Of a stretch of 64,000 bases of DNA, positions 48,517 through 64,000 are shown one piece after another (positions within the stretch are counted from its first letter, which is position 1; each line of letters starts with the position of its first letter). The DNA is from Obrimoposthia wandeli (Eukaryota). The translations under genes were made by a program, and so were the position numbers. The DNA is taken from the NCBI GenBank assembly GCA_977020255.1, contig CDROCS010001419.1:372001-436000 (forward strand), in the 5' to 3' direction. Under the pieces are notes generated by a model. That model was not told where the DNA came from. It saw only the letters and a program-made list of their open reading frames with translations, and searched no databases.

Positions 48517-49980
48517 GCTTCAATCAAGGCCTCTTTGAGCTCAGAGGATATTATAAATTATGAAGAAAACTACATTTTCCTATGATTTTCTCTGAAAAAC
48601 GACTAACACCGGAGTTACATCAGTCCTAAAGTTTTTTAAAATATAATATTATAAACCATAATCTCCGAATGTTCATAAAACATTTAATAGTTCTTAAACT
48701 ACCATCCTTTCATCGTTAGAGGTATATTTTCTATGTATTTTAATCAAAAAAGCTGCACTTATGACTTTTTACGGCACTATTCAATTTTTTAACACACCCT
48801 ATAGTAAAAAATCACAAACAACTTTTTTATTTTGCCCTGTAGGTGTGTGACTGCATGCATTCTATAGTAAGTAATTATTCAGTTTTTACGGCAAAATTCA
48901 TTTTGGATAGATGCTGTTTTTTATCGGTAAGTTTTACTATGTATTATTATTAATCTTATCTTATACTATAGGATTGTGTGCCGACTTTTTACAACGGCAC
49001 TAATCAGTTAGATTAGGTGTATTTGTATGTCTAATCATGCCGTTAATCTTTAGTGAAATTCGATGTTCACATATAAGAAATAAAACAATCAATCCAAATG
49101 GTACACTGTAAAAAACTGTATTTTATAAAGATTATGAGTGTCTAGATCTATTTTTATGCTGATTATATAAAACCACTCTTGAATTTGTATCACATCTATT
49201 TTTCTCGCAAAATGCACATAAGCTATTTGTACAATACTGTTAGGATTAGGATTTGATAAATTTTAAATAATTAATCTAATTTATATCAAAATAAAATCCG
49301 TGAAAGTAAGGTTATAAATTAAATAAAAAATTATATTGTTAAAATAAATCGATGAGAGTAAAAGGCAAATTAAATATTTAGGACCTTGAAAGGTCATGTT
49401 CAATGTGTTGTATATAAGGAAGTTAAAGTTAAATTAAAAAGGACCAAAAAATTAATTAAGAAATAGAAGAAGAACAAGAATTAAGGTAATATTAGCAATT
49501 GACTGAATTATTCAACAAGAATTAAGGTCAAACGTCAGAAATCTCGCGACGCAGCAGCAACAGTGAATCATCGTGAGTCACCCAGGAAGTAAGGTGATAA
49601 TAGAAATTGATTGAATTATTCATCACACAATTAAGGTCAACTGTCAGAAATCTCTGCCCATCGTGAATCACCAGCCGACAAGAGGATTATTGCTCGCGGA
49701 CACACAGTCGCTTATCTCGGTCGAGAGTGGAATTTAGCAGACACACACAAGAAAATAGAAGCAACAGCTGTTTCGTGGGGTGAGTGTCGATTAGTAATCA
49801 GATCGATTAATCATTGCCTTGCAGGACCGTAAGAAGAGAAGGAAGGAAATTCGAGTGACAGCGACACACCACGAGAAATTTAGACTATATAAGTCTAAAT
49901 TATTATTAAATTTGGCAGTAGCAGTTATTATTTTGCCGAAAGTTGGAATCAGAAAGACTCGTGATTAAATCCGAGCGGAA

Positions 49981-50197
49981 ATTTGTTAAGGAAAATCTCG
50001 GCGATAGATTCCGAGTACCCAAATCAAGAGCGACAATTTGTTAAAGTAAGTCTTGGCGATATATTCCGAGCAACAAAATCAAGAGCGACAATTTGTTAAA
50101 GAAAGTCTCGGCGATAGATTCCGAGCACCCCAATCAAGAGCGACAATTTGTTAAAGAAAAACTCGGCGATAGATTCCGAACAACCAGATCAAGAGAA
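49981..50197 (+). repeat. 55-bp tandem repeat (~4 copies) in solo LTR
   Basis: ATTTGTTAA recurs at 49981, 50036, 50091 and 50146; each unit holds a CTCGG-N9-CCGAG-like hairpin. Confidence 0.9.
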
Positions 50198-50394
50198 GCA
50201 AAAAGCGAAAATAAAGAAGAAGTACAACTAAAAACGAGGAGAGACCGTCAGAATCACCCAGAGCGAGAACCGTACAGTGCGATCACAGCACGCCAAGGGT
50301 ACCGAGTAAAGGATTCGACTGACATCTGAGGAGGCAATCTAGACCGGACGCCAGGTTATACGGAAGAGGTAAGGAACAAGCGCGGAGATAAAAG

Positions 50395-50720
50395 TAGAAC
50401 GTGATTTTAAATAAGTAATTGTGAAACCGATTTTGGAGAATTTATAACTTGATTTTAAATAAGTAATTTTGAAGCCGATTTTGGAGAATTGAGAATTTGA
50501 TTTAAATAGTAAAGTGAAAGACGATTTTGAGAATTTGATTTAAATAGTAAAGTGAAAGACGATTTTGAGAATTTGATTAAAATAGTAATTTGGAGACCGA
50601 TTTTGAGAATTTAGAGCTTGATTAAAATAGCAATTTGGAAGTCGATTTTGAGAGTTTTGAGTTGAGATAAATAGTAATTTGAGAACCGATTTTGAAAGTT
50701 TTGAGCCGTAATTTATAATT
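50395..50720 (+). repeat. Degenerate ~38-bp tandem repeat in solo LTR
   Basis: About 8 copies of gattttgagaattt..gattnaaatagtaa. Confidence 0.8.
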
Positions 50721-51335
50721 TGGATATCGTACAATTTGATAAACATATAAATTTGATATCGTAAAATTTGATATCATATACTTTGATTTGAAAGCCTCTA
50801 TAAATTAGAGCAAGTTTGTAATCGTTAAATTACTAGAAAGACTCTATAAATTAGAGCAAGTTTTGATTTTGTGCAATCACCAATATACTAGAAAGACTTT
50901 ATAAACCTTCAACCCTAAAATTAAAATCGATACGTGGATCAATCCCACTTGTGTAGAGACTTACAGAAGTCTTAGGAATTTTATTGTAACTTTTTAGAAA
51001 TACGTACTTAAACGTATTAATTCGTGTTAGTCTAGTGTGTTAATAAATAAACGATTTCCTACAACTAGAAAGCATCGTTCTAACCCCTTCAGATTAAGAC
51101 ACAACAAAAAACCTTCAGATAAGAATTGAGACAGGCAAGCATAACATTAAGTAGGCCACAACCAACCTTAAGTCCTGCGTCTATAGAACTCACGTTGGGG
51201 CCCTCCATTCAAGAGGATCTATATTAGAACACAGTTTCATATAGAAACCCCAACAATACTATATATTTTAAAATATACAAACATTTAAATTCATCAAATA
51301 TTTTCTTTTTGATAATCTGTTAGAGTTTGATTGAG

Positions 51336-54341: not shown

Positions 54342-54785
54342 ATGGATCCAATGCGCAAACTATTTGAAGATAAAATAGCCCAGATGATCAAATCCAAAGG
54401 AGTGAATGCCTCTGCTGTGATGTCGAGACAACAGTACGACGAGATCCTGATTCGATTACGACATCTGGAGTCGGATACGGACTCAAAGAAGAGTGCCAAG
54501 GACTATCGACTTATGAGGAAATACGATATTATAGAGTATGGCGTCGACGATACTGCGGTAAGCAAACTCGCAAAAAAAGCTACTGCTTTGCAATTCATCT
54601 GTGTTGATGGGCTCTTCAATGTGACCCATACAAATCATCTCGCTGAAGGACATGGAGGACCACGAATTACATATAGAGCAGTTTGTGAAAAATATGCCAA
54701 TGTAACTCTGGAACAGATTGAGGTGTACCGGAATATATGTGAGGACTGTCAATTGAAGAAAAGCATTAATAGCATTTACCAATAA
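54342..54785 (+). pseudogene. Ginger/KRBA2-SCAND3-like integrase N-terminal fragment (HHCC zinc finger), truncated before the catalytic core
   Basis: HLAEGHGGPRITYRAVCEKYANVTLEQIEVYRNICEDCQLKK; no DDE core follows. Confidence 0.7.
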
Positions 54786-56150
54786 GCAACAACTTTGAGA
54801 AATTGTGGTCAATACAACAATTTGATCTAACATATCTAATGAATATCGAGAAATAGCTTTTAAATTATAAAATAATTACTCATTTCAATTTGTATTTTAA
54901 TACATGTTTTATTCTTTGTTTCAGATATATAGCTATAAATTTAAAAGTGAAGCAAAATCGTTTTCGAAGATGGTTTACTACTTTAGTAATCCTTCTTGAT
55001 GCCAGCGTGTCAATGAAGTTGTTGAAAAAGAAAATGATGCAGAATGAAGATGACAATGAATTCAGAAATGAAGAGAATTCAGATGATGACAGTTATGTTT
55101 TACTTCGTAAACATAATTCAAAAGAGTCAGATTCTACAAACAGAATAATTATTTTAAATACGAACAATTAAACAAATTATATTGGCATGCTGTTTCTGGC
55201 TTCTGATTTGTACATGAGTATGTTGCCAAGAAAACTAAGCCAAATAACCAAAGTTGAATGATGACAGTTAATGGGATTGGAAATTTTGCATATCATATAT
55301 GTTTATAAGCGGTAGCAAAGCTAATTATTATGCAATTGTTTAGTTTGATGTTTTGTGCAAATTGAGCATCATAATACATTTATATCAACAATATTTATAC
55401 TAAAAAATGTAGTTTTTTCAAACTTTTCAATTTTTGATTTGATTACCCCGATTCAAAATAGAATTACACAAAACTAATGTTTAATATGTTTGGTAACAAA
55501 AGAGTTAAATGTATATTTCAACTGTAGCATTTTACGCCCTAGTGAGCTGTTGATATTAATGTTTGCGAAGAATAACTATATATAATAGAATATAAAAGTG
55601 TATTGATAAAATAAATTCGCAGTTTTATATCTTGAAGACAACACAGTTTGTACTAATCACATAGATGAAGAACTATTCAAATATACAGGCATTTTAAAAT
55701 ATTTTATACAGATAAGATAATTTTACATGGTTATCTGATTGTTTATTTAGTAGGAAATGTTTTTAAGTAATGTTGAACAATTATTTAATTTAGGGGAATA
55801 TTATATGGGTAACTTATTACACCATATCTAATGTTTTATTTGTCCTTATAAAACTAAATACATCATTTTAAAGTGCATATAAAATTGGGTTGAGTTCAAA
55901 AGATTCTGCAGTCTGTTTACTTCAAATGCAATTGCTATATAACTGTTGGGGTTTCTATACGAAACTTGGTATAGAGCCTCTTAGTGTGCGGAGGGCCCCA
56001 ACGTGAGTTCGATTAGAAGCAGGTCTTAAAGTTGGTCGTGGCCTACTTAGTGTTATGGTTGCCTAATCTCTTGTACTATCTGAAGGTGTTTGATTTGATG
56101 TCTCTTAGTCTGAAGGGTGTAAAAACAACTTGTTCTAATGTAGGAAATTG

Positions 56151-56156
56151 TTTATT
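56151..56156 (-). terminator. Candidate LTR polyadenylation signal AATAAA
   Basis: Same position relative to the LTR end as the AATAAA in the solo LTR. Confidence 0.5.
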
Positions 56157-56426
56157 CAAAATTCACGTAACTAACACCACAATACGTTTATGTACGTATT
56201 TCTAAAAAGTATGATAAAATTCCTAAAGGACTTCCGTGAGTCTCTACAAGAAGTGGGGATGAACCACGTATCGATTTTACGTTCAGGTGATTAAGTTTCT
56301 TAGGTTTAGTCTTCTTACTCAGGTTGGTTAATCTATAACGCAACTCTCTTAATTTTCTTCGCTCCTACTTCTTATCTCTAGCTAAATGTTTCTTTGTTCC
56401 TTACTCTCTCTGTGTGTGTTTGACCC

Positions 56427-56858
56427 AAATTGTCTACTGTAGACAAGGGATCTCCTAAAAACCTAATTGTCAAGATGACAATAAAAACTTACTCCTAATT
56501 GTCAACTACGGACAATGAACGAACCGAATTGTCAGCTAGTGGACAATGAGTCTTACCGAATTGTCTACTAGGGACAATGAATATTTATCCGAATTACCAA
56601 CTAGGGGCAATGAAGGAACCTAATTGTCAGCTAGGGACAATGAATCTTACGGGAAAAACGTCTGGTAGGTTTCCTAATTGTCGCTGGGGACAATGAATAA
56701 AGGTCCGATCCTAATTACCAACTAGGGGCAATGATTGTGGTAAAGAGACAGTGATCCTAATTACCAGCTAGGGGCAATGAATTTGTGTATGATTAAGAAA
56801 ATATAGAATTACCAACTAGGGGTAATGAATATATCCTAATTGCCTACTAGGGGCAATG
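56427..56858 (-). repeat. Array of 12 palindromic ~23-bp units separated by unique 7-31-nt spacers
   Basis: Minus-strand consensus cATTG(T/C)C-CCTAG(T/C)N-G(A/G)CAATt with a 6-bp stem and usually a 7-nt loop. Confidence 0.9.
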
Positions 56859-56958
56859 ACTGAACCTAGTCTGTGTTCTTACCAGTTACAGCAACTCGTG
56901 GGACGTCCGGTGTAGGGTCCGTATGTGGTGTTTGCGAGCCTGGCGGAATCGTCTTCGA

Positions 56959-57453
56959 AATCGACTGTTCGTCTCTTCAATCAACGGTTCGTCTTCTTAA
57001 ATCAACGGTTCGACTCTTCAATCAACGGTTCGACTCTTCAATCAACGGTTCGACTCTTCAATCAACGGTTCGACTCTTCAATCAACGGTTCGACTCTTCA
57101 ATCAACGGTTCGACTCTTCAATCAACGGTTCGACTCTTCAATCAACGGTTCGACTCTTAAATCAACGGTTCGACTCTTAAATCAACGGTTCGACTCTTAA
57201 ATCAACGGTTCGACTCTTAAATCAACGGTTCGACTCTTAAATCAACGGTTCGACTCTTCAATCAACGGTTCGACTCTTAAATCAACGGTTCGACTCTTCA
57301 ATCAACGGTTCGACTCTTAAATCAACGGTTCGACTCTTCAATCAACGGTTCGACTCTTCAATCAACGGTTCGACTCTTAAATCAACGGTTCGACTCTTCA
57401 ATCAACGGTTCGACTCTTAAATCAACGGTTCGACTCTTAAATCAACGGTTCGT
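56959..57453. repeat. 20-bp tandem array (ATCAACGGTTCGACTCTT[C/A]A), 22 exact units plus flanking degenerate units
   Basis: Exact 20-nt periodicity from 57001 to 57440 with a single variable site. Confidence 0.98.
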
Positions 57454-57531
57454 CTGACGAGGGGATTGTTGCTTCCTGTCTTTGTTTCTTCTGGCGATTC
57501 CGTATTTGTGATTCTAGCTGGAAAACCTGCC

Positions 57532-57539
57532 TTTATATA
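57532..57539 (-). promoter_or_regulatory. Candidate LTR TATA box (TATATAAA)
   Basis: Lies on the minus strand upstream of both arrays, preceded by two GCAGC.GTCAA.TGAT.GAC repeats. Confidence 0.55.
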
Positions 57540-58221
57540 TTGGCACTGGACGTCAATCAGTTGACGGCTGCGTTGAGTCTTTCTTCAGCGAACCCGGAGA
57601 GAATATTGCAATGTCAATCAATTGACAGCTGCAAACAAAATTTAGTTTATTGCACGAAAATGTGCTTACCTTGGGGATCCTTGAGCGACGGTTGTAATTA
57701 ACCGTTTTTCTTTTAATTAACTAAATTTCTTGCGACTTCTGGGTTAATTAATTTAACTTATATACATCTCACATTGTACACGACCTTCGTGGTCCTCCTA
57801 ATTTTACCCTAATATTTCACTATTTTTACTTCTAAAACTTAAATTAATATTTTAATTTAATTTTCGACCTTGCTTTCAAGGATTTTTATTTTAGTATTTA
57901 ATCAACTAAAATATTTAATTTTCTTAATTCTCAACCTTAACATACCTCGGGGGTTCCAAAAAAGTTACGTCCCCGGAACGTATCGATTTTACTTAAATAA
58001 GCCTTTGGCTGTTGATTTTAGGTTCATCCCTACAAAATCAATCATTCAACCTCAACAAACATGCCCAAAAAAATTTTTTCCAAAATCCCGGTTTTTAGTG
58101 GGAAACATAATATATAAGTTGGAACATGTCTCAATTTATACACTATTACTTATAACAACTAAAATTTACATACAAGATTACACGATAACCAAGGTCAGGA
58201 AGGAAAGAAGGGAGGAAAGGA

Positions 58222-58758
58222 TTAATTGTCGTATGTCAAGTCAATTGTAATTGTTGGCTGGTTCCGACTGGCCAGGTAGCGTAGAACCTGTTCCAGGGGA
58301 AGGTCGGGAAAGGACGGACTGTCCCCGTTGTACAAATGGAGTTGCTGGCTCCGGGTCAAATGCGGGCTGTCGATGAACAGGTCGAAGTGCTGCCTGTTCA
58401 TGTTATGGCTTTCAATCCAGTGCCGTCTGGCCTGGAACCACGAGTGGCAGTCTCGACTAGACCGCCATCTCTCGCGGACGCCCAGTTGTGTGTCGCGCCG
58501 GCGTGCGAGACACACGTAGCATTGGCAATGGATGCCACCAATGCAGCTGGCAGGCGATCGGGTGCCTTTGTGTCTTCCGCGGCTCTGGAGTGTCCATTTG
58601 GCGAAGGGTGTCCGGCACAGTGGACAGGTGATTTGTCCGGTGGTTCGAACCTTGGTCCACAAATAGAGGCACTCCTCGTGAAATTTGTGACGGCAGCCGA
58701 CAGGGGATGCTGATACCGCCCAAATCTTCTCCATGCATACGGAGCACAACATCTGCAT
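58222..58758 (-). CDS. RING-H2 protein 3 (178 aa) with a CxCxxC cluster and a C-terminal SIM-like ITIDLT
   Basis: CSVC..CRHKFHEEC..W..CPLC; intact ORF. Confidence 0.9.
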   Translation of the reverse strand: MQMLCSVCMEKIWAVSASPVGCRHKFHEECLYLWTKVRTTGQITCPLCRTPFAKWTLQSRGRHKGTRSPASCIGGIHCQCYVCLARRRDTQLGVRERWRSSRDCHSWFQARRHWIESHNMNRQHFDLFIDSPHLTRSQQLHLYNGDSPSFPDLPLEQVLRYLASRNQPTITIDLTYDN

Positions 58759-59092: not shown

Positions 59093-59398
59093 TTATTGTT
59101 GGGGATTGGGCTGGCCTGTGCTTCGCTCCTCCACGCAGAACGAGCACCAGCAATCGCAGATGGTTTTCCAGCAGTGTACGATGGGTACCACTGCTTGGAG
59201 GCTGTCTTGGTTGTACACGTAGTGTACTGAGAAGGTCGCTCTGCACATCGGGCAGGTTGGGAAGTCGAGGGGATTGTTGCTGTTGGCAATGGGGATCCAC
59301 GTCTCGAGGCATTCGACGTGGAAAAGGTGGTCGCAGTTGTTGGGCTTGGTGTAGAAGTCCACGATGCTCTCGTAGCAGATGGAACATTCTCCAGACAT
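59093..59398 (-). CDS. RING-H2 protein 2 (101 aa) with C-terminal Cys cluster
   Basis: CSIC..CDHLFHVEC..W..CPMC, then CWKTICDCWCSFC. Confidence 0.9.
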   Translation of the reverse strand: MSGECSICYESIVDFYTKPNNCDHLFHVECLETWIPIANSNNPLDFPTCPMCRATFSVHYVYNQDSLQAVVPIVHCWKTICDCWCSFCVEERSTGQPNPQQ

Positions 59399-59458
59399 TA
59401 CTGTGGGAGGGTTGATGTTGAATTTGGGCTCGATTGAGGACTGGTGGTTGTGTGATCT

Positions 59459-59758
59459 TTACACAAAAGTGGTCTGATTTTGTCGATCTGACAAACAGTA
59501 ATAACACCAACACTCTCCGAAATTCTTCCAGCAGAATACCACCTGTACATATACATCCCTTTGGTTGGGTTCTAACATGACGAATCTTGCGAATTGTCTT
59601 CTGCATATAGGGCAACGAGGGTATGTTGGGTGTCCGAACTGTCCATAAGTTCTGATCCATGTCGATAAACATTCCTCGTGGTGTAAATGGTTGCAGGTTT
59701 CGGGTCTTGTTCTTCGTTCGGTTAGATCTTCTAAACATATTGGGCATTCTTCGGCCAT
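59459..59758 (-). CDS. RING-H2 protein 1 (99 aa) with C-terminal Cys cluster
   Basis: CPIC..CNHLHHEEC..W..CPIC, then CWKNFGECWCYYC. Confidence 0.9.
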   Translation of the reverse strand: MAEECPICLEDLTERRTRPETCNHLHHEECLSTWIRTYGQFGHPTYPRCPICRRQFARFVMLEPNQRDVYVQVVFCWKNFGECWCYYCLSDRQNQTTFV

Positions 59759-59794
59759 TCTAAATACATGATGATGATTAATTTCTACATGAGT

Positions 59795-59881: not shown

Positions 59882-62134
59882 TCATATCTTGATGGGAGGT
59901 GGAGGTAAGGGTCGCAATTCCACTTCCTCCATGATGGGTGTGTCACAGCATCGCAATCCTTCGCATTTTCGTCGTATTCCTGGGCATACTTGACTGCCTT
60001 TTACGCACACGATTGTAAGTAGAACCACCGCTGTTGACACTACGGCCATTCCAATTAGGGCATTGACTGCTGTTATTCCGCTGTCTGATGTTTTATAATC
60101 ATACTTCATTTTGTTGTTTGTTGGTTCGAATGATATTTCCATGGGTTTTGATCGGTTTCCATGTATTATATCCGATTTTCTAAAAATTCGGGGATTTGGG
60201 TGTTTTGTTTCTGATGGAACAGGTATTATTATTTTGGATTGGAAATGATGTTTGGGATCTAGTGGGATCGTTCCCCTCACTCTTGTCCTCTTAATAATTG
60301 TACTTTGGTTTCTGGGATTGGACTCTTTTTCTTTCGCTTCTGTCTTTGTTTTGATCACTGTCGGTTTCTTGGAATGTCGTTTACTTTCGATTACCTTTGC
60401 CTTCTTTTTGACTAGGATTGGTCTTCTGGGAATGATTTTCCTGGGTTTGATACTTATACCGTATCTGCGAAATCGACGGTTCTGGTATCTTAGAGTTATG
60501 TAGAATATTTCACCTGTTATTATCATGATTATGGTCGAGGTCTCTGTAGAATTACTGGCAATTCGATTACACAGACATTCTGTGTTAAAATGTGGTACTA
60601 ACATTTGGCTTTGGATTTCGAATCTGATTACGCCATCTGGGTTGGGACACATTACTGTCACGCTGTCAGTTTCTAGCAATCTGAAAAATAACCTAACGGA
60701 ATTCCATACGGCTTTACGTCGTCTACCTGTGATCATAATCCTGTCGACAATTTTCCAGATGCGCTCATCTCTAGGTAATATTAATGACTTTGTTCGGATA
60801 CTTTGGATAATCCGCTTCCTCTTTGATATTGTTATCCGTAGGTATAACACTCTTTCATGATGCAATAATATTAAATTGTAAACGGGTGTATGTTGGTCGA
60901 TTTTTATTCTGACCTGTCGGATGACATACAATTTCTGATCGATATTGTCAGTTGCTGACGTCTGTAGATGAATGTCTACTACGTGATTTGTTTTTAGTAG
61001 GGGAATTTCTATGTATATTGCCCGTATTACGTCTTGTCTCCATTTACTGATCATGATCTCATAACTAGCCTTGGTAGTGGTGATTTGTACGATCAGCATG
61101 ATTCCTATGATCGTTCGATTCCTAAACTCAGGAACTTCAATGAAACAAGTCAAATTACTCATATAGTACGGTCTTTCCTCGATGTGTTCGTATATCGTTG
61201 GCTGGTACTCTGGTGCTGGTTCATCTAAAAATGGTGGTCTTGGTATTATTGTGTTGAATTTTTGTAAGTTCATTTGACCTGTTCGTCTTGCGAGATCATG
61301 ACGTTTCTTTTTTGATCTCGACTCTATCTTTGAACAACAAAACAAGATGAGTAATATTAATATTATAAATCCAATGATCAGTGCGAGTATTGGATTAACC
61401 AATTCTAGAATACCATAACGTACTGCTGGTATTCCTTTACTCTTGATGGTTAATATCTTAAATTTGTGTGCACTTTGGTTGGACATGTCACTGAGAAGCA
61501 CTATTTTAGTTTGTCCAAATATGTAGTCTTCACATGTGACAACACTAACTCCATAATGTCCATTAAGTGTTATCATTTCGGTCGCTGGGACTATACACAT
61601 TCGTCCTGGACATCCTTTTACACACATGATCATCACGGCTCTACTGTGGGATGTCTTGATTATTTCTAGAGTGTTGTCTAGATTTCTCAAATGTAAATTA
61701 TATTCGGATAGTGTCATCAATTCGGCTTTACTGGTTGGCATGGCTTGCAGTACCAATCCAATTACTATTCCATAGATCAATCCTTGTGCAACGGTGCACA
61801 GGGCCTTGACTGACCTTTTGCAAAGGGTTTTAATTATCAATCGTTTGAGAGATATCTGCTTCTGATTTGTTCGTTTTGTTGTCTGTCGTTGTTTTGACAT
61901 CTCCTCGATTCCATCTCGTCCGATAATCAACTGTACCGGTTTACCTTGTATCGTCAACTTTCCGAATCCATTTTTGGCGGACAAGCATGTTTTATGTCCT
62001 TCCATTGTTTCAATTATCACTCTCTTACTTCCATACTCACGTGTTTTGATGACATCGCCGTTGAATATATACGTTGGTCCTTTTGTGTCAGCATCTTTTG
62101 TATTTCCTTTACAACTCGTTTTCTCCGCTTGCAT
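59882..62134 (-). CDS. 750-aa membrane polyprotein of unknown family (two signal-like segments, two TM anchors), in an env-like position
   Basis: Uninterrupted ORF with hydrophobic blocks GLIYGIVIGLVLQA, ILALIIGFIILILLILFCC, IIGIMLIVQI and ALIGMAVVSTAVVLLTIVCV. Confidence 0.75.
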   Translation of the reverse strand: MQAEKTSCKGNTKDADTKGPTYIFNGDVIKTREYGSKRVIIETMEGHKTCLSAKNGFGKLTIQGKPVQLIIGRDGIEEMSKQRQTTKRTNQKQISLKRLIIKTLCKRSVKALCTVAQGLIYGIVIGLVLQAMPTSKAELMTLSEYNLHLRNLDNTLEIIKTSHSRAVMIMCVKGCPGRMCIVPATEMITLNGHYGVSVVTCEDYIFGQTKIVLLSDMSNQSAHKFKILTIKSKGIPAVRYGILELVNPILALIIGFIILILLILFCCSKIESRSKKKRHDLARRTGQMNLQKFNTIIPRPPFLDEPAPEYQPTIYEHIEERPYYMSNLTCFIEVPEFRNRTIIGIMLIVQITTTKASYEIMISKWRQDVIRAIYIEIPLLKTNHVVDIHLQTSATDNIDQKLYVIRQVRIKIDQHTPVYNLILLHHERVLYLRITISKRKRIIQSIRTKSLILPRDERIWKIVDRIMITGRRRKAVWNSVRLFFRLLETDSVTVMCPNPDGVIRFEIQSQMLVPHFNTECLCNRIASNSTETSTIIMIITGEIFYITLRYQNRRFRRYGISIKPRKIIPRRPILVKKKAKVIESKRHSKKPTVIKTKTEAKEKESNPRNQSTIIKRTRVRGTIPLDPKHHFQSKIIIPVPSETKHPNPRIFRKSDIIHGNRSKPMEISFEPTNNKMKYDYKTSDSGITAVNALIGMAVVSTAVVLLTIVCVKGSQVCPGIRRKCEGLRCCDTPIMEEVELRPLPPPPIKI

Positions 62135-64000
62135 CCGGCGAATGTTGTTGATATTCGGTCAAGTGTGTGCTGTCGGTCAGCTTCGTAATCTATTCGGAAT
62201 TGATTCAGTATTCTGTTTTGTGGGTAAAATATCGCTTCATTTACTATGTTGTCTTCGATCCTTTCGTCTAGATACACAAGCACTTTGTTCGTTGGTCCAT
62301 TTGGTCTCTTCATCTTTACAAACTGAAATCTTTTACTGTCGGTTCTCATAGATCGAAGACATTTTCGGATGATCCACACATCAATTAGTCCTAACAACAC
62401 TAATAGCATCATCAGTGCCGGTGTATGGTACTGTATGGTGTAATTGTGGATTTCGTTGAACCAGGAACTATTTCCATGGTTGGAGCCTATTTCCTGTGCT
62501 CCCGTTATCGGCATTAAACAACTTAACAAGCCTATCGCTAGCAATCTTTGGTATTGAAAGCTGGGCACTGTTGTTGTAGCTTCATTTGTTTCTCGTTGTT
62601 GTTTCCTCTTTTCGGTGTATTTTTCTATTTCTCGAACGAGTAACGGTTTGAATTCCGTATTCGGTCTATTCTGTTTGATGTAGACCATCGCTTCTTCTGG
62701 CGTGTGACCATGGTACTCTACCAACAAGGATACACCTATGGTAGGCGCTAACATCGTACCTTTTTTCTGATATATCAGAACGCCGTTTCCTTCTGTGACT
62801 TCCGCTTGGATGGTTTGAGTCAATTTCGTCAGATGTTGTTGTGCATCGTTTATCTCTCGATTAGAAGCATGTATGTATCGAGTGGTGTCGTCTTCAGTAT
62901 TTTGACACAGACTAATTATCTCGTTTCCGACTTCAACAATATTGATTACTCGGTTGATACTGTGGAACTTTAATCCAGCAGTATCTATATCTCCTGGATG
63001 ACATAAAAATACTTTTGGCATTATCTGTGTAATTTTGTCGACTCCGGCTAAAAATAACCCAGTCAGTGATAATGCTTGGAGGAAATTCTTTTCCTTTGGA
63101 TCCTCAGGAATGTCGTCCATCCGTCTTTGTTCTTGCAACAGAAGTTGGTAATTTGCCAACTGTCCCAAAAAATTAAGATTTGGGTTTGCAATACTTCTTC
63201 TCTCCTGTAGGTATTTTAACGCTTCTAGTACCTGCATTCGTCTAGTCTTTATTAGATATGCTAATACTAGGGTTGCTGATCGAGAAATTCCTTTCTGACA
63301 ATGTACCAACACTTTTCCTTGGTTTCGGAGTTCTCTGTGAAGTATTTCGTTTGTTTCTACGAACCATTCGAGAAGATTAGCGTCCATTGAGTCTTTTACT
63401 CTTAATGTCATAGCTCTGATCGTCTGGTATTGCGATTTGTGATTCATTGTAACGTTGATCACATATGTTATCCCTTGTTCCAACAGTTTCTTTTCATCTG
63501 TTGCATCCTCCACATTTCCGAGGTATAACTTACCTGGAATGATCTCACTCATTGGTGGCATTAATTCTGACTCTTCAAGTTTTAGTCTTTCTAATCTCTT
63601 CTCTATCTGTTCGTCGATGTTAGTTAGTTTTGCCAGTTTCTTTCCTCTCAGCATTCGTATTGCTGGAGGGATATTCATCTTTGTCTCTGATGTCTGTTCC
63701 TTTGTTGAGTCTTCTTCCGACTCGGTCTCCTCTGCAGATTTAATTCGTCTTTCTTGTATATTCTGTTTCACGAATTCTATATTTTGTCTTTTTCTGCTCT
63801 CTTTAGCGAATTCAACCTCCATGGTTCTTCCGAATCGCTCTATTATGTTATCTTCGGATTCTGTTGATTCTGTATCGTTACTTTCCGGTTCGCTGTCTTC
63901 ACTAGACTCGCTCGAAGGGTATTCTGGTATGTCTGTCTGGACTGAAATTAATGAAGGTGTTAGAATAATTGGATTGATTTCCCCTTCGTATTTGTGAATC
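62017..64000 (-). CDS. Dual-specificity phosphatase plus pseudophosphatase polyprotein with a downstream membrane module; 5'-partial
   Basis: IIPGKLYLGN...VHCQKGISRS...RSIANPNLNF, then a second DSP-fold repeat lacking the catalytic motif. The frame stays open upstream of Met 63822 to the window edge (at least 660 codons). Confidence 0.9.
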   Translation of the reverse strand, partial: IHKYEGEINPIILTPSLISVQTDIPEYPSSESSEDSEPESNDTESTESEDNIIERFGRTMEVEFAKESRKRQNIEFVKQNIQERRIKSAEETESEEDSTKEQTSETKMNIPPAIRMLRGKKLAKLTNIDEQIEKRLERLKLEESELMPPMSEIIPGKLYLGNVEDATDEKKLLEQGITYVINVTMNHKSQYQTIRAMTLRVKDSMDANLLEWFVETNEILHRELRNQGKVLVHCQKGISRSATLVLAYLIKTRRMQVLEALKYLQERRSIANPNLNFLGQLANYQLLLQEQRRMDDIPEDPKEKNFLQALSLTGLFLAGVDKITQIMPKVFLCHPGDIDTAGLKFHSINRVINIVEVGNEIISLCQNTEDDTTRYIHASNREINDAQQHLTKLTQTIQAEVTEGNGVLIYQKKGTMLAPTIGVSLLVEYHGHTPEEAMVYIKQNRPNTEFKPLLVREIEKYTEKRKQQRETNEATTTVPSFQYQRLLAIGLLSCLMPITGAQEIGSNHGNSSWFNEIHNYTIQYHTPALMMLLVLLGLIDVWIIRKCLRSMRTDSKRFQFVKMKRPNGPTNKVLVYLDERIEDNIVNEAIFYPQNRILNQFRIDYEADRQHTLDRISTTFAGCKRRKRVVKEIQKMLTQKDQRIYSTAMSSKHVSMEVRE

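Follow-up and report, generated by a model that had tools for sequence, protein, structure and literature searches.

Does a retrotransposon encode a ubiquitin ligase that recognises SUMO-modified proteins, and might it use that ligase against host silencing? The question was raised by an open reading frame, RING3, in a window of 64,000 nucleotides from Obrimoposthia wandeli (contig CDROCS010001419.1, positions 372,001 to 436,000), which an initial annotation had described as a transposon-encoded SUMO-targeted ubiquitin ligase (STUbL). The frame exists as described: it occupies 58222-58758 on the minus strand with 178 codons, its N-terminal RING-H2 domain covers residues 4-49 (PF13639, 33 bits against a cut-off of 27.3), and it ends QPTITIDLTYDN*. 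The features of the locus are as follows.

55944..57942, minus strand: 3' LTR, TG...CA, about 2 kb, containing a variable 20-bp tandem array at 56949-57455
58222..58752, minus strand: RING3 coding sequence, 176 aa from the likely start, which is the third codon of the 58222-58758 ORF
58234..58248, minus strand: T-I-D-L-T, a SIMb-like motif in the predicted disordered tail, missing from short alleles
58258..58491, minus strand: predicted four-helix domain, residues 90-167, in long and short alleles, of no known family
58510..58545, minus strand: second Cys cluster, C-x4/5-C-x-C-x2-C, common to RING1 and RING2, putatively zinc-binding
58612..58746, minus strand: RING-H2 domain, C5-R49, including helix Trp34, Pro46 and Arg49
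58753..58756, minus strand: GCAG, a splice-acceptor-like site directly 5' of the ATG, the same in the window and in 16/16 divergent lineages
59093..59398, minus strand: RING2, a 101-aa RING3 paralogue without the helical domain or tail
59459..59758, minus strand: RING1, a 99-aa RING3 paralogue without the helical domain or tail
59882..62134, minus strand: accessory ORF, 750 aa, with hydrophobic membrane-like segments and no Pfam family above cut-off
62017..64000, minus strand: accessory ORF with a dual-specificity phosphatase (DUSP) domain, running past the window, 838 aa from its ATG

RING3 is carried by a transposon, and this part of the earlier description was borne out by the LTRs, target-site duplications (TSDs) and gypsy polyprotein that surround it. 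Three paralogous RING-H2 genes are found shortly before the 3' LTR of a gypsy retrotransposon of about 24 kb, and RING3 is the last of them; 280 bases separate its end from the 2-kb LTR (57942 to 55944 in the window, TG...CA), and the sequence past the LTR edge differs between element copies. The 20-bp array at 56949-57455 within the LTR was variable in copy number, and many element copies had a different sequence there. In the one other copy examined, which spans about 24 kb, LTRs of 2,193 bp with 2 differing sites were accompanied by a 4-bp TSD, and the polyprotein was encoded as one 3,792-codon frame. The polyprotein contained a CCHC knuckle, a weak ubiquitin-like match, a mononegavirus-type fusion glycoprotein, a protease, a BIR, a RING, a second protease, RT, RNase H and integrase, with Pfam matches to PF24664 (the fusion glycoprotein, E 2e-89), BIR, zf-C3HC4_3 and zf-CCHC. 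The hallmarks of gypsy elements were present (TG...CA LTRs, 4-bp TSDs and the order PR-RT-RH-IN), and the polyprotein, which also bore BIR and RING cargo, had an env-like fusion glycoprotein in frame after gag and before pol. Two aspartic-protease-like domains flanked the BIR/RING region (L035:3145-9999, L036:3-4517), and a primer-binding-site-like TGGTGCC..., which we take to match the end of elongator tRNA-Met, followed a short spacer downstream of the 5' LTR (L035:2020-2050). The DUSP ORF came next after the polyprotein; a homologue search with it returned 24 cellular phosphatases and no close retrotransposon relative. The family is large: a pattern built on the RING of RING3 gave 5,332 matches in the genome, compared with 0 for the control. 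Elsewhere in the window, outside the element, a 147-aa ORF at 54342-54785 on the plus strand had a weak integrase zinc-binding match (PF17921, E 0.002) and is probably a fragment of another transposon, and degenerate tandem repeats of 26-55 bp were clustered at 49973-50785.

We filed the element as Burro-like on the basis of its domain content set against the published description of Burro and GYPSM1, the planarian gypsy giants (PMC6431247). In the accessible portion of that description they share with it thousands of copies, accessory ORFs, and a single polyprotein with a CCHC gag, a hint of a ubiquitin-like domain, an in-frame fusion glycoprotein between gag and pol, BIR, RING and PR-RT-RH-IN. 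Burro exceeds 30 kb and has a 4,873-aa polyprotein, whereas the element here spans about 24 kb, its LTRs are 2 kb long and its polyprotein has about 3,800 aa. For the MATH, ankyrin, BCL2 and dUTPase domains of Burro1-4 we found no Pfam match at E≤0.05, and for ubiquitin only a weak one (E 0.043), the published calls having been made with HHpred. Three RING-H2 genes clustered at the 3' end, an ORF for a DUSP and a SUMO-interacting motif (SIM) are not mentioned in the same portion of the Burro description.

The translation start of RING3 is likely to be 58752, the third codon of the frame, because ATG stands at codon 1 in just 3 of 16 other lineages, whereas the GCAG|ATG of the third codon was invariant (16/16). 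RING2 had ACAG two bases ahead of its ATG in 11/11 matches (59401-59404 in the window), RING1 had TTTAG one base ahead in 9/9 (59760-59764 in the window), 12 loci having been scanned, and the DUSP ORF began CAG|ATG (L031:2534-2536); the 750-aa ORF had no AG at its first ATG. An acceptor-like AG therefore lies 0-2 bases before the ATG of RING3, RING2, RING1 and the DUSP ORF, and is kept across lineages for the three RING genes. Spliced-leader trans-splicing occurs in flatworms, and we infer that the RING genes may be expressed from spliced subgenomic RNAs produced either in cis or by spliced-leader trans-splicing. Four sequencing runs from one sample contained no joint at the acceptor sites and covered spacers and ORFs alike, and so were uninformative on expression.

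RING3 has both the C3H2C3 zinc ligands and the RING fold. A hydrophobic residue at C+2, the helix Trp, a Pro and the Arg after the last Cys are E2-binding residues with a role in E2 activation. Among the long ORFs, Val or Ile at C+2 was present in 28/28, Trp in 28/28, Pro in 26/28 and Arg in 28/28, and in the matched short ORFs each was kept in 25-26 of 26. The helix Trp presumably resembles the Trp linked to monomeric activity in cellular STUbLs. The whole ORF is under purifying selection: among 41 indel-free sequences of 49 close copies there were 31 synonymous and 15 non-synonymous shared variants (pN/pS 0.14), and in 10 lineages of the long form, whose identity to the window copy was 56-85%, it was 0.37. 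The RING residues support, as a prediction from sequence, the assignment of RING3 as an active E3 ubiquitin ligase.

RING1, RING2 and RING3 align over the RING and second Cys cluster at 29-37% identity, and about 90 extra residues are found only in RING3. A comparison with 5.8 billion proteins gave 0/17 candidates at E≤0.001 (candidate lengths 97-312 only), so that no relative was seen beyond this genome. Host RING-H2 genes (20 distinct frames at 30 loci in a PF13639 search) aligned to RING3 only over the RING, at 18-25 bits, and contained no [IV]DLT; a donor gene was not found among them. A large intronless host family of about 300-335 aa, in which a RING-H2 at the N terminus is followed by a helical middle and, at the C terminus, by a Cys/His cluster, was seen at loci L050, L052, L055-L062, L068-L075 and G000:C289:858310-914234, often clustered or in tandem arrays, one with a 3.28-kb unit; it is unrelated to RING3 beyond the RING. 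The initial annotation had taken a GC and CpG content far above that of the neighbours as a hint of separate acquisition. RING3 (GC 0.559) does exceed RING1 (0.42) and the TM, DUSP and pol ORFs (0.375-0.395), but RING2 is equally GC-rich (0.542) and surpasses it in GC3 (0.755 versus 0.676), and the CpG observed/expected ratio of RING3 (0.87) lies within the range of neighbouring ORFs (0.75-1.0), so that its CpG excess reflects GC content alone. All 51 RING3 ORFs measured, both long and 166-167-aa forms, had a GC of 0.55-0.60; high GC is therefore a maintained property and not the trace of a recent capture. We rejected recent separate capture of RING3 since its GC is shared with RING2 and is old, holding across lineages with pS of about 0.5, and since it is paralogous to RING1 and RING2.

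The reading of RING3 as a STUbL turns on four residues of its tail. A match to [IV]DLT is expected by chance with a probability of about 0.006 per 178-aa protein and about 0.2 over the roughly 5,800 coding residues of the element, so that the match in itself carries modest weight; it is its conservation that goes beyond chance. We examined copies chosen by a RING pattern without the motif in it, to avoid circularity. The top 150 copies, being 96-100% identical, were uninformative on motif conservation and were set aside, as was a second subfamily found with a motif-containing pattern, which would have been circular. The sample consisted of 90 of the first 100 matches listed, leaving out 5 that had already been sampled (3 with the motif, 2 short) and the last 5; addition of 20 further loci picked through RING1/RING2 variants gave 57 distinct unbroken ORFs in all, 28 of them of 177-181 aa, 27 of 174 aa or less, and 2 of 182-183 aa with frameshifted tails, both of which were set aside.

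[IV]DLT was present in 28 of 28 distinct unbroken long ORFs. Across 10 lineages the motif had a pS of 0.81 and a pN of 0.037, giving a pN/pS of 0.05, where the protein as a whole had 0.37; the values are pairwise and uncorrected, come from related sequences and do not amount to a formal test. Five of the 6 Leu codons were used within the motif, the residues before and after it varied, in residues 91-170 just 3 of 77 windows of four residues equalled its conservation, and a 3-codon insertion ahead of it in two lineages left it unmoved. As third positions were saturated while the amino acids were held, and as the motif survived the insertion, we concluded that it is under purifying selection at the protein level. 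The same observations largely refute the idea that the motif matched by chance or reflects a nucleic-acid constraint close to the LTR, with RING3 an ordinary RING accessory protein, an idea that would agree with the chance expectation over the element and with repeated loss of the motif; we regard it as very improbable. No other SIM-like match was found in RING3 under the scan used, and neither RING1 nor RING2 has such a tail.

Conservation in long ORFs is one side of the result; about 40% of copies lacked the motif through truncation. At the DNA level 42 of the 90 sampled copies had the motif, 38 were truncated before or inside it, and 10 were unclear; the truncated copies comprised 32 of a 167-aa form ending ahead of the motif and 6 of 172-174 aa ending DVD[DN] or D[IT]ID. 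Loss in the sample was by truncation only and never by in-frame substitution. Genome-wide, tail patterns gave 3,220 matches with the motif (control 96) versus 2,121 short (control 91). Readthrough of the stop as a means of restoring a SIM in short alleles was considered and not adopted; SIM-like words after the stop were present in some and were unconserved among them.

The short alleles show purifying selection and recent insertion rather than decay. Their pN/pS was 0.18 (22 ORFs) versus 0.28 for the long 178-aa set (23 ORFs), and the median nearest-neighbour distance was 2.0% for short versus 2.1% for long alleles. An upstream LTR-like match was found in 7 of 10 short-allele copies checked, 3 of which had whole LTRs with 4-bp TSDs and LTR pairs 99.85, 99.4 and 98.9% identical; among long-allele copies a match was found in 10/10, with best pieces at 85-99.3%. 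Since about 40% of copies are motif-less and recently inserted, the motif is unnecessary in cis, that is, it is selected where present and dispensable in cis. At 11 of 30 loci RING2 was 96-99% identical to that of the window and RING3 just 74-77%, so a young backbone held in common carries old RING3 alleles, a situation that is most simply explained by allele exchange through recombination. A tree built without the tail showed 3 changes of long/short state in all bootstrap trees; its well-supported branches force only 1 change, and recombination blurs the tree.

We asked what structure prediction would add. In a model of full RING3 (24 sequences; pLDDT 67, pTM 0.43) the RING and a helical part could be made out, the Cys cluster was unresolved, and the tail was disordered, with residues 170-178 below pLDDT 50. 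Fold searches returned RING domains alone, none at E≤0.001, as did a sequence search of solved structures. Modelled alone, the helical domain reached pLDDT 77 and pTM 0.66; Pfam gave nothing above cut-off for it and Foldseek nothing, and its best fold matches were POU-specific, XRE and CUT domains (Z up to 5.0; rmsd 2.5-3.0 and 61-62 aligned residues for Oct4), tied with unrelated helical bundles at Z 4.8-4.5. A likeness of the last helix to an F-box, seen in 6 of 37 members (best E 0.037), was not adopted; a whole F-box would not fit.

The genome encodes SUMO, and its SUMO exon is closest to flatworm SUMOs (77-79%). The complex prediction with SUMO that the initial annotation had proposed came out weakly in its favour: residues 146-178 with a flatworm stand-in for SUMO scored 0.35, and the best of 3 controls 0.06. 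Contact agreement in these runs was at least 69% and partner pLDDT at least 56, with no interface given. The mark used for complexes was reached by 51 of 78 solved pairs versus 2 of 108 mismatched pairs, but at scores of 0.60 or below by only 5 of 78 solved pairs and by all 4 passing mismatches; the SUMO-complex pass may also be the model's memory of solved SUMO-SIM structures. Tandem 267-270-bp units were seen on several contigs, each a ubiquitin-like domain ending ARLR or MRLR with in-frame stops between (L222:139-1557, L226:181-1236), and ubiquitin-like domains were seen inside long retroelement-like frames of another family (L224, L225, L227).

The conserved core and its predicted setting are consistent with a SIM. 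SIMs lie in disordered segments (PMC8161396), the cores of RNF4 SIM2/3 and of PIAS SIMb are VDLT and VIDLT, respectively (PMC3901395), and in the accessible part of a further study the fourth core position is the most constrained, others being more permissive (PMC12751080). The claim that IDLT belongs to the hydrophobic-D-L-T class is borne out only in part: [IV]DLT is kept in all 28 long ORFs, but 27 of them have Thr at the preceding position and one has Ile, where PIAS VIDLT has Val. The fourth core position is Leu in RING3. The acidic residue said to follow the motif does exist, but two places past its last Thr and varying among D, E and N, with Asn in some lineages, so the acidic flank is thin. 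Taken with selection on the motif in the face of saturated synonymous change, its disordered position and the weak complex score support the interpretation of the tail motif as a candidate SIM.

CtBP-type corepressors bind a PxDLS motif, and x-I-D-L-T resembles motifs of that type. The tail might thus bind some other protein, for example such a corepressor at a non-canonical PxDLS-like site, and have no role with SUMO, a reading that the thin acidic flank and the weak complex score would suit. We consider it improbable, as the first position is Thr or Ile and never Pro, and the last is always Thr, never Ser, with three codons in use (28/28), which fits a DLT-class SIM better.

Of the interpretations weighed here, the one that we prefer, at a little short of an even chance, is that RING3 acts as an E3 ligase and that, in the long allele, a single C-terminal TIDLT also lets it recognise SUMO in a STUbL-like manner. 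The DLT-class core, the disordered tail, the presence of SUMO in the host and the retained RING hallmarks speak for this reading, and the lone motif, its first Thr, the thin acidic flank and the roughly 40% of copies without it speak against it. It is not an RNF4-type STUbL, as judged from the single predicted motif in place of a SIM cluster. Within the accessible parts of the sources, RNF4 and RNF111/Arkadia are alike in joining a DLT-class motif in a disordered segment to a RING, but in them the RING is C-terminal and is preceded by a cluster of 3-4 SUMO-binding motifs, and they act by avidity (PMC8161396, PMC3901395), in contrast to RING3, whose RING comes first and which has one motif and two further domains. 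Binding by a lone SIM is weak when no acidic residues flank it, and several SIMs are present in each of RNF4, RNF111 and ICP0 (PMC8161396, PMC3174244, PMC3901395).

A true SIM could also do no more than dock or localise RING3, for instance at nuclear bodies rich in SUMO, or promote RING3's own SUMOylation, with substrates picked by the Cys cluster and helical domain and perhaps being cell-death or immune signalling proteins. That the one motif is weak, that its loss is tolerated in about 40% of copies whose remaining ORF is still constrained, and that RING1 and RING2 have no tail would all accord with such a role, as would, for substrates of this kind, the BIR and RING of the polyprotein and the DUSP of the next ORF. 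We nevertheless regard it as unlikely in comparison with the STUbL-like reading, since the pN/pS of the four motif residues lies far below that of the whole protein and since HSV-1 ICP0 attaches ubiquitin to chains of SUMO-2 in vitro with one functional SIM (PMC3174244). ICP0 and its orthologues likewise combine a RING with SIM-like sequence in a genetic parasite, and the one dominant SIM that, according to the accessible text, can drive SUMO-dependent ubiquitination may be likened to the lone RING3 motif. ICP0 is much larger, with seven SIM-like sequences (the functional one IVISDS), whereas RING3 has 176 aa, a RING-H2 and one optional C-terminal DLT motif (PMC3174244). We found no homology between the two beyond the RING fold (fold search rank 47, E 0.29).

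In the STUbL-like reading that we prefer, RING3 RNA would be spliced at the acceptor-like AG before the ATG, and the RING would bind an E2. The helical domain, because it is kept in both alleles, would make the main contact with substrate or chromatin. The tail would give a weak SUMO contact that biases the ligase toward the SUMOylated form of its target, more in the manner of ICP0 than by the avidity of RNF4, and the long allele would ubiquitinate SUMO-modified host proteins. The tail would then be an optional module, and elements without the motif would either manage without it or use the protein of other copies in trans.

Whether RING3 acts against piRNA-guided silencing, as the initial annotation proposed, we consider doubtful; the link rests on outside knowledge from Drosophila SUMO and planarian SMEDWI-2 work. 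In Drosophila, piRNA-guided silencing requires SUMO (10.1101/533091), and in planarians SMEDWI-2, a PIWI protein of the nucleus, represses Burro elements via H3K9 methylation, SUMO being absent from the main text of that study (PMC8532177). In the literature searched, transposon proteins that counter silencing have been described mainly for plant VANDALs. VANC of Arabidopsis VANDAL is similar in being an accessory protein of a transposon proposed to counter host silencing, but it comes from a DNA transposon of plants, binds DNA sequence-specifically and has an activity that has been demonstrated (PMC5735166), whereas RING3 is a predicted ligase. A literature search in which subscription literature, including the original Burro paper and supplements, lay mostly beyond scope found no retrotransposon-encoded RING-SIM protein. 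The fullest version of the proposal, similarly doubtful, is that the element would use a STUbL of its own to remove SUMOylated effectors of piRNA silencing, that two old alleles would be kept and swapped by recombination on one active backbone, and that motif-less elements would ride free in trans.

With thousands of copies in its family, a small RING protein whose SIM-like tail is under selection offers a concrete and cheaply testable candidate for transposon counter-defence in an animal. The natural pair of long and short alleles provides a built-in control and a case in which helper and free-rider dynamics could be studied. Even if the anti-silencing proposal fails, the three acceptor-bearing RING genes constitute a layer of accessory genes in Burro-like elements that we have not met in the literature searched.
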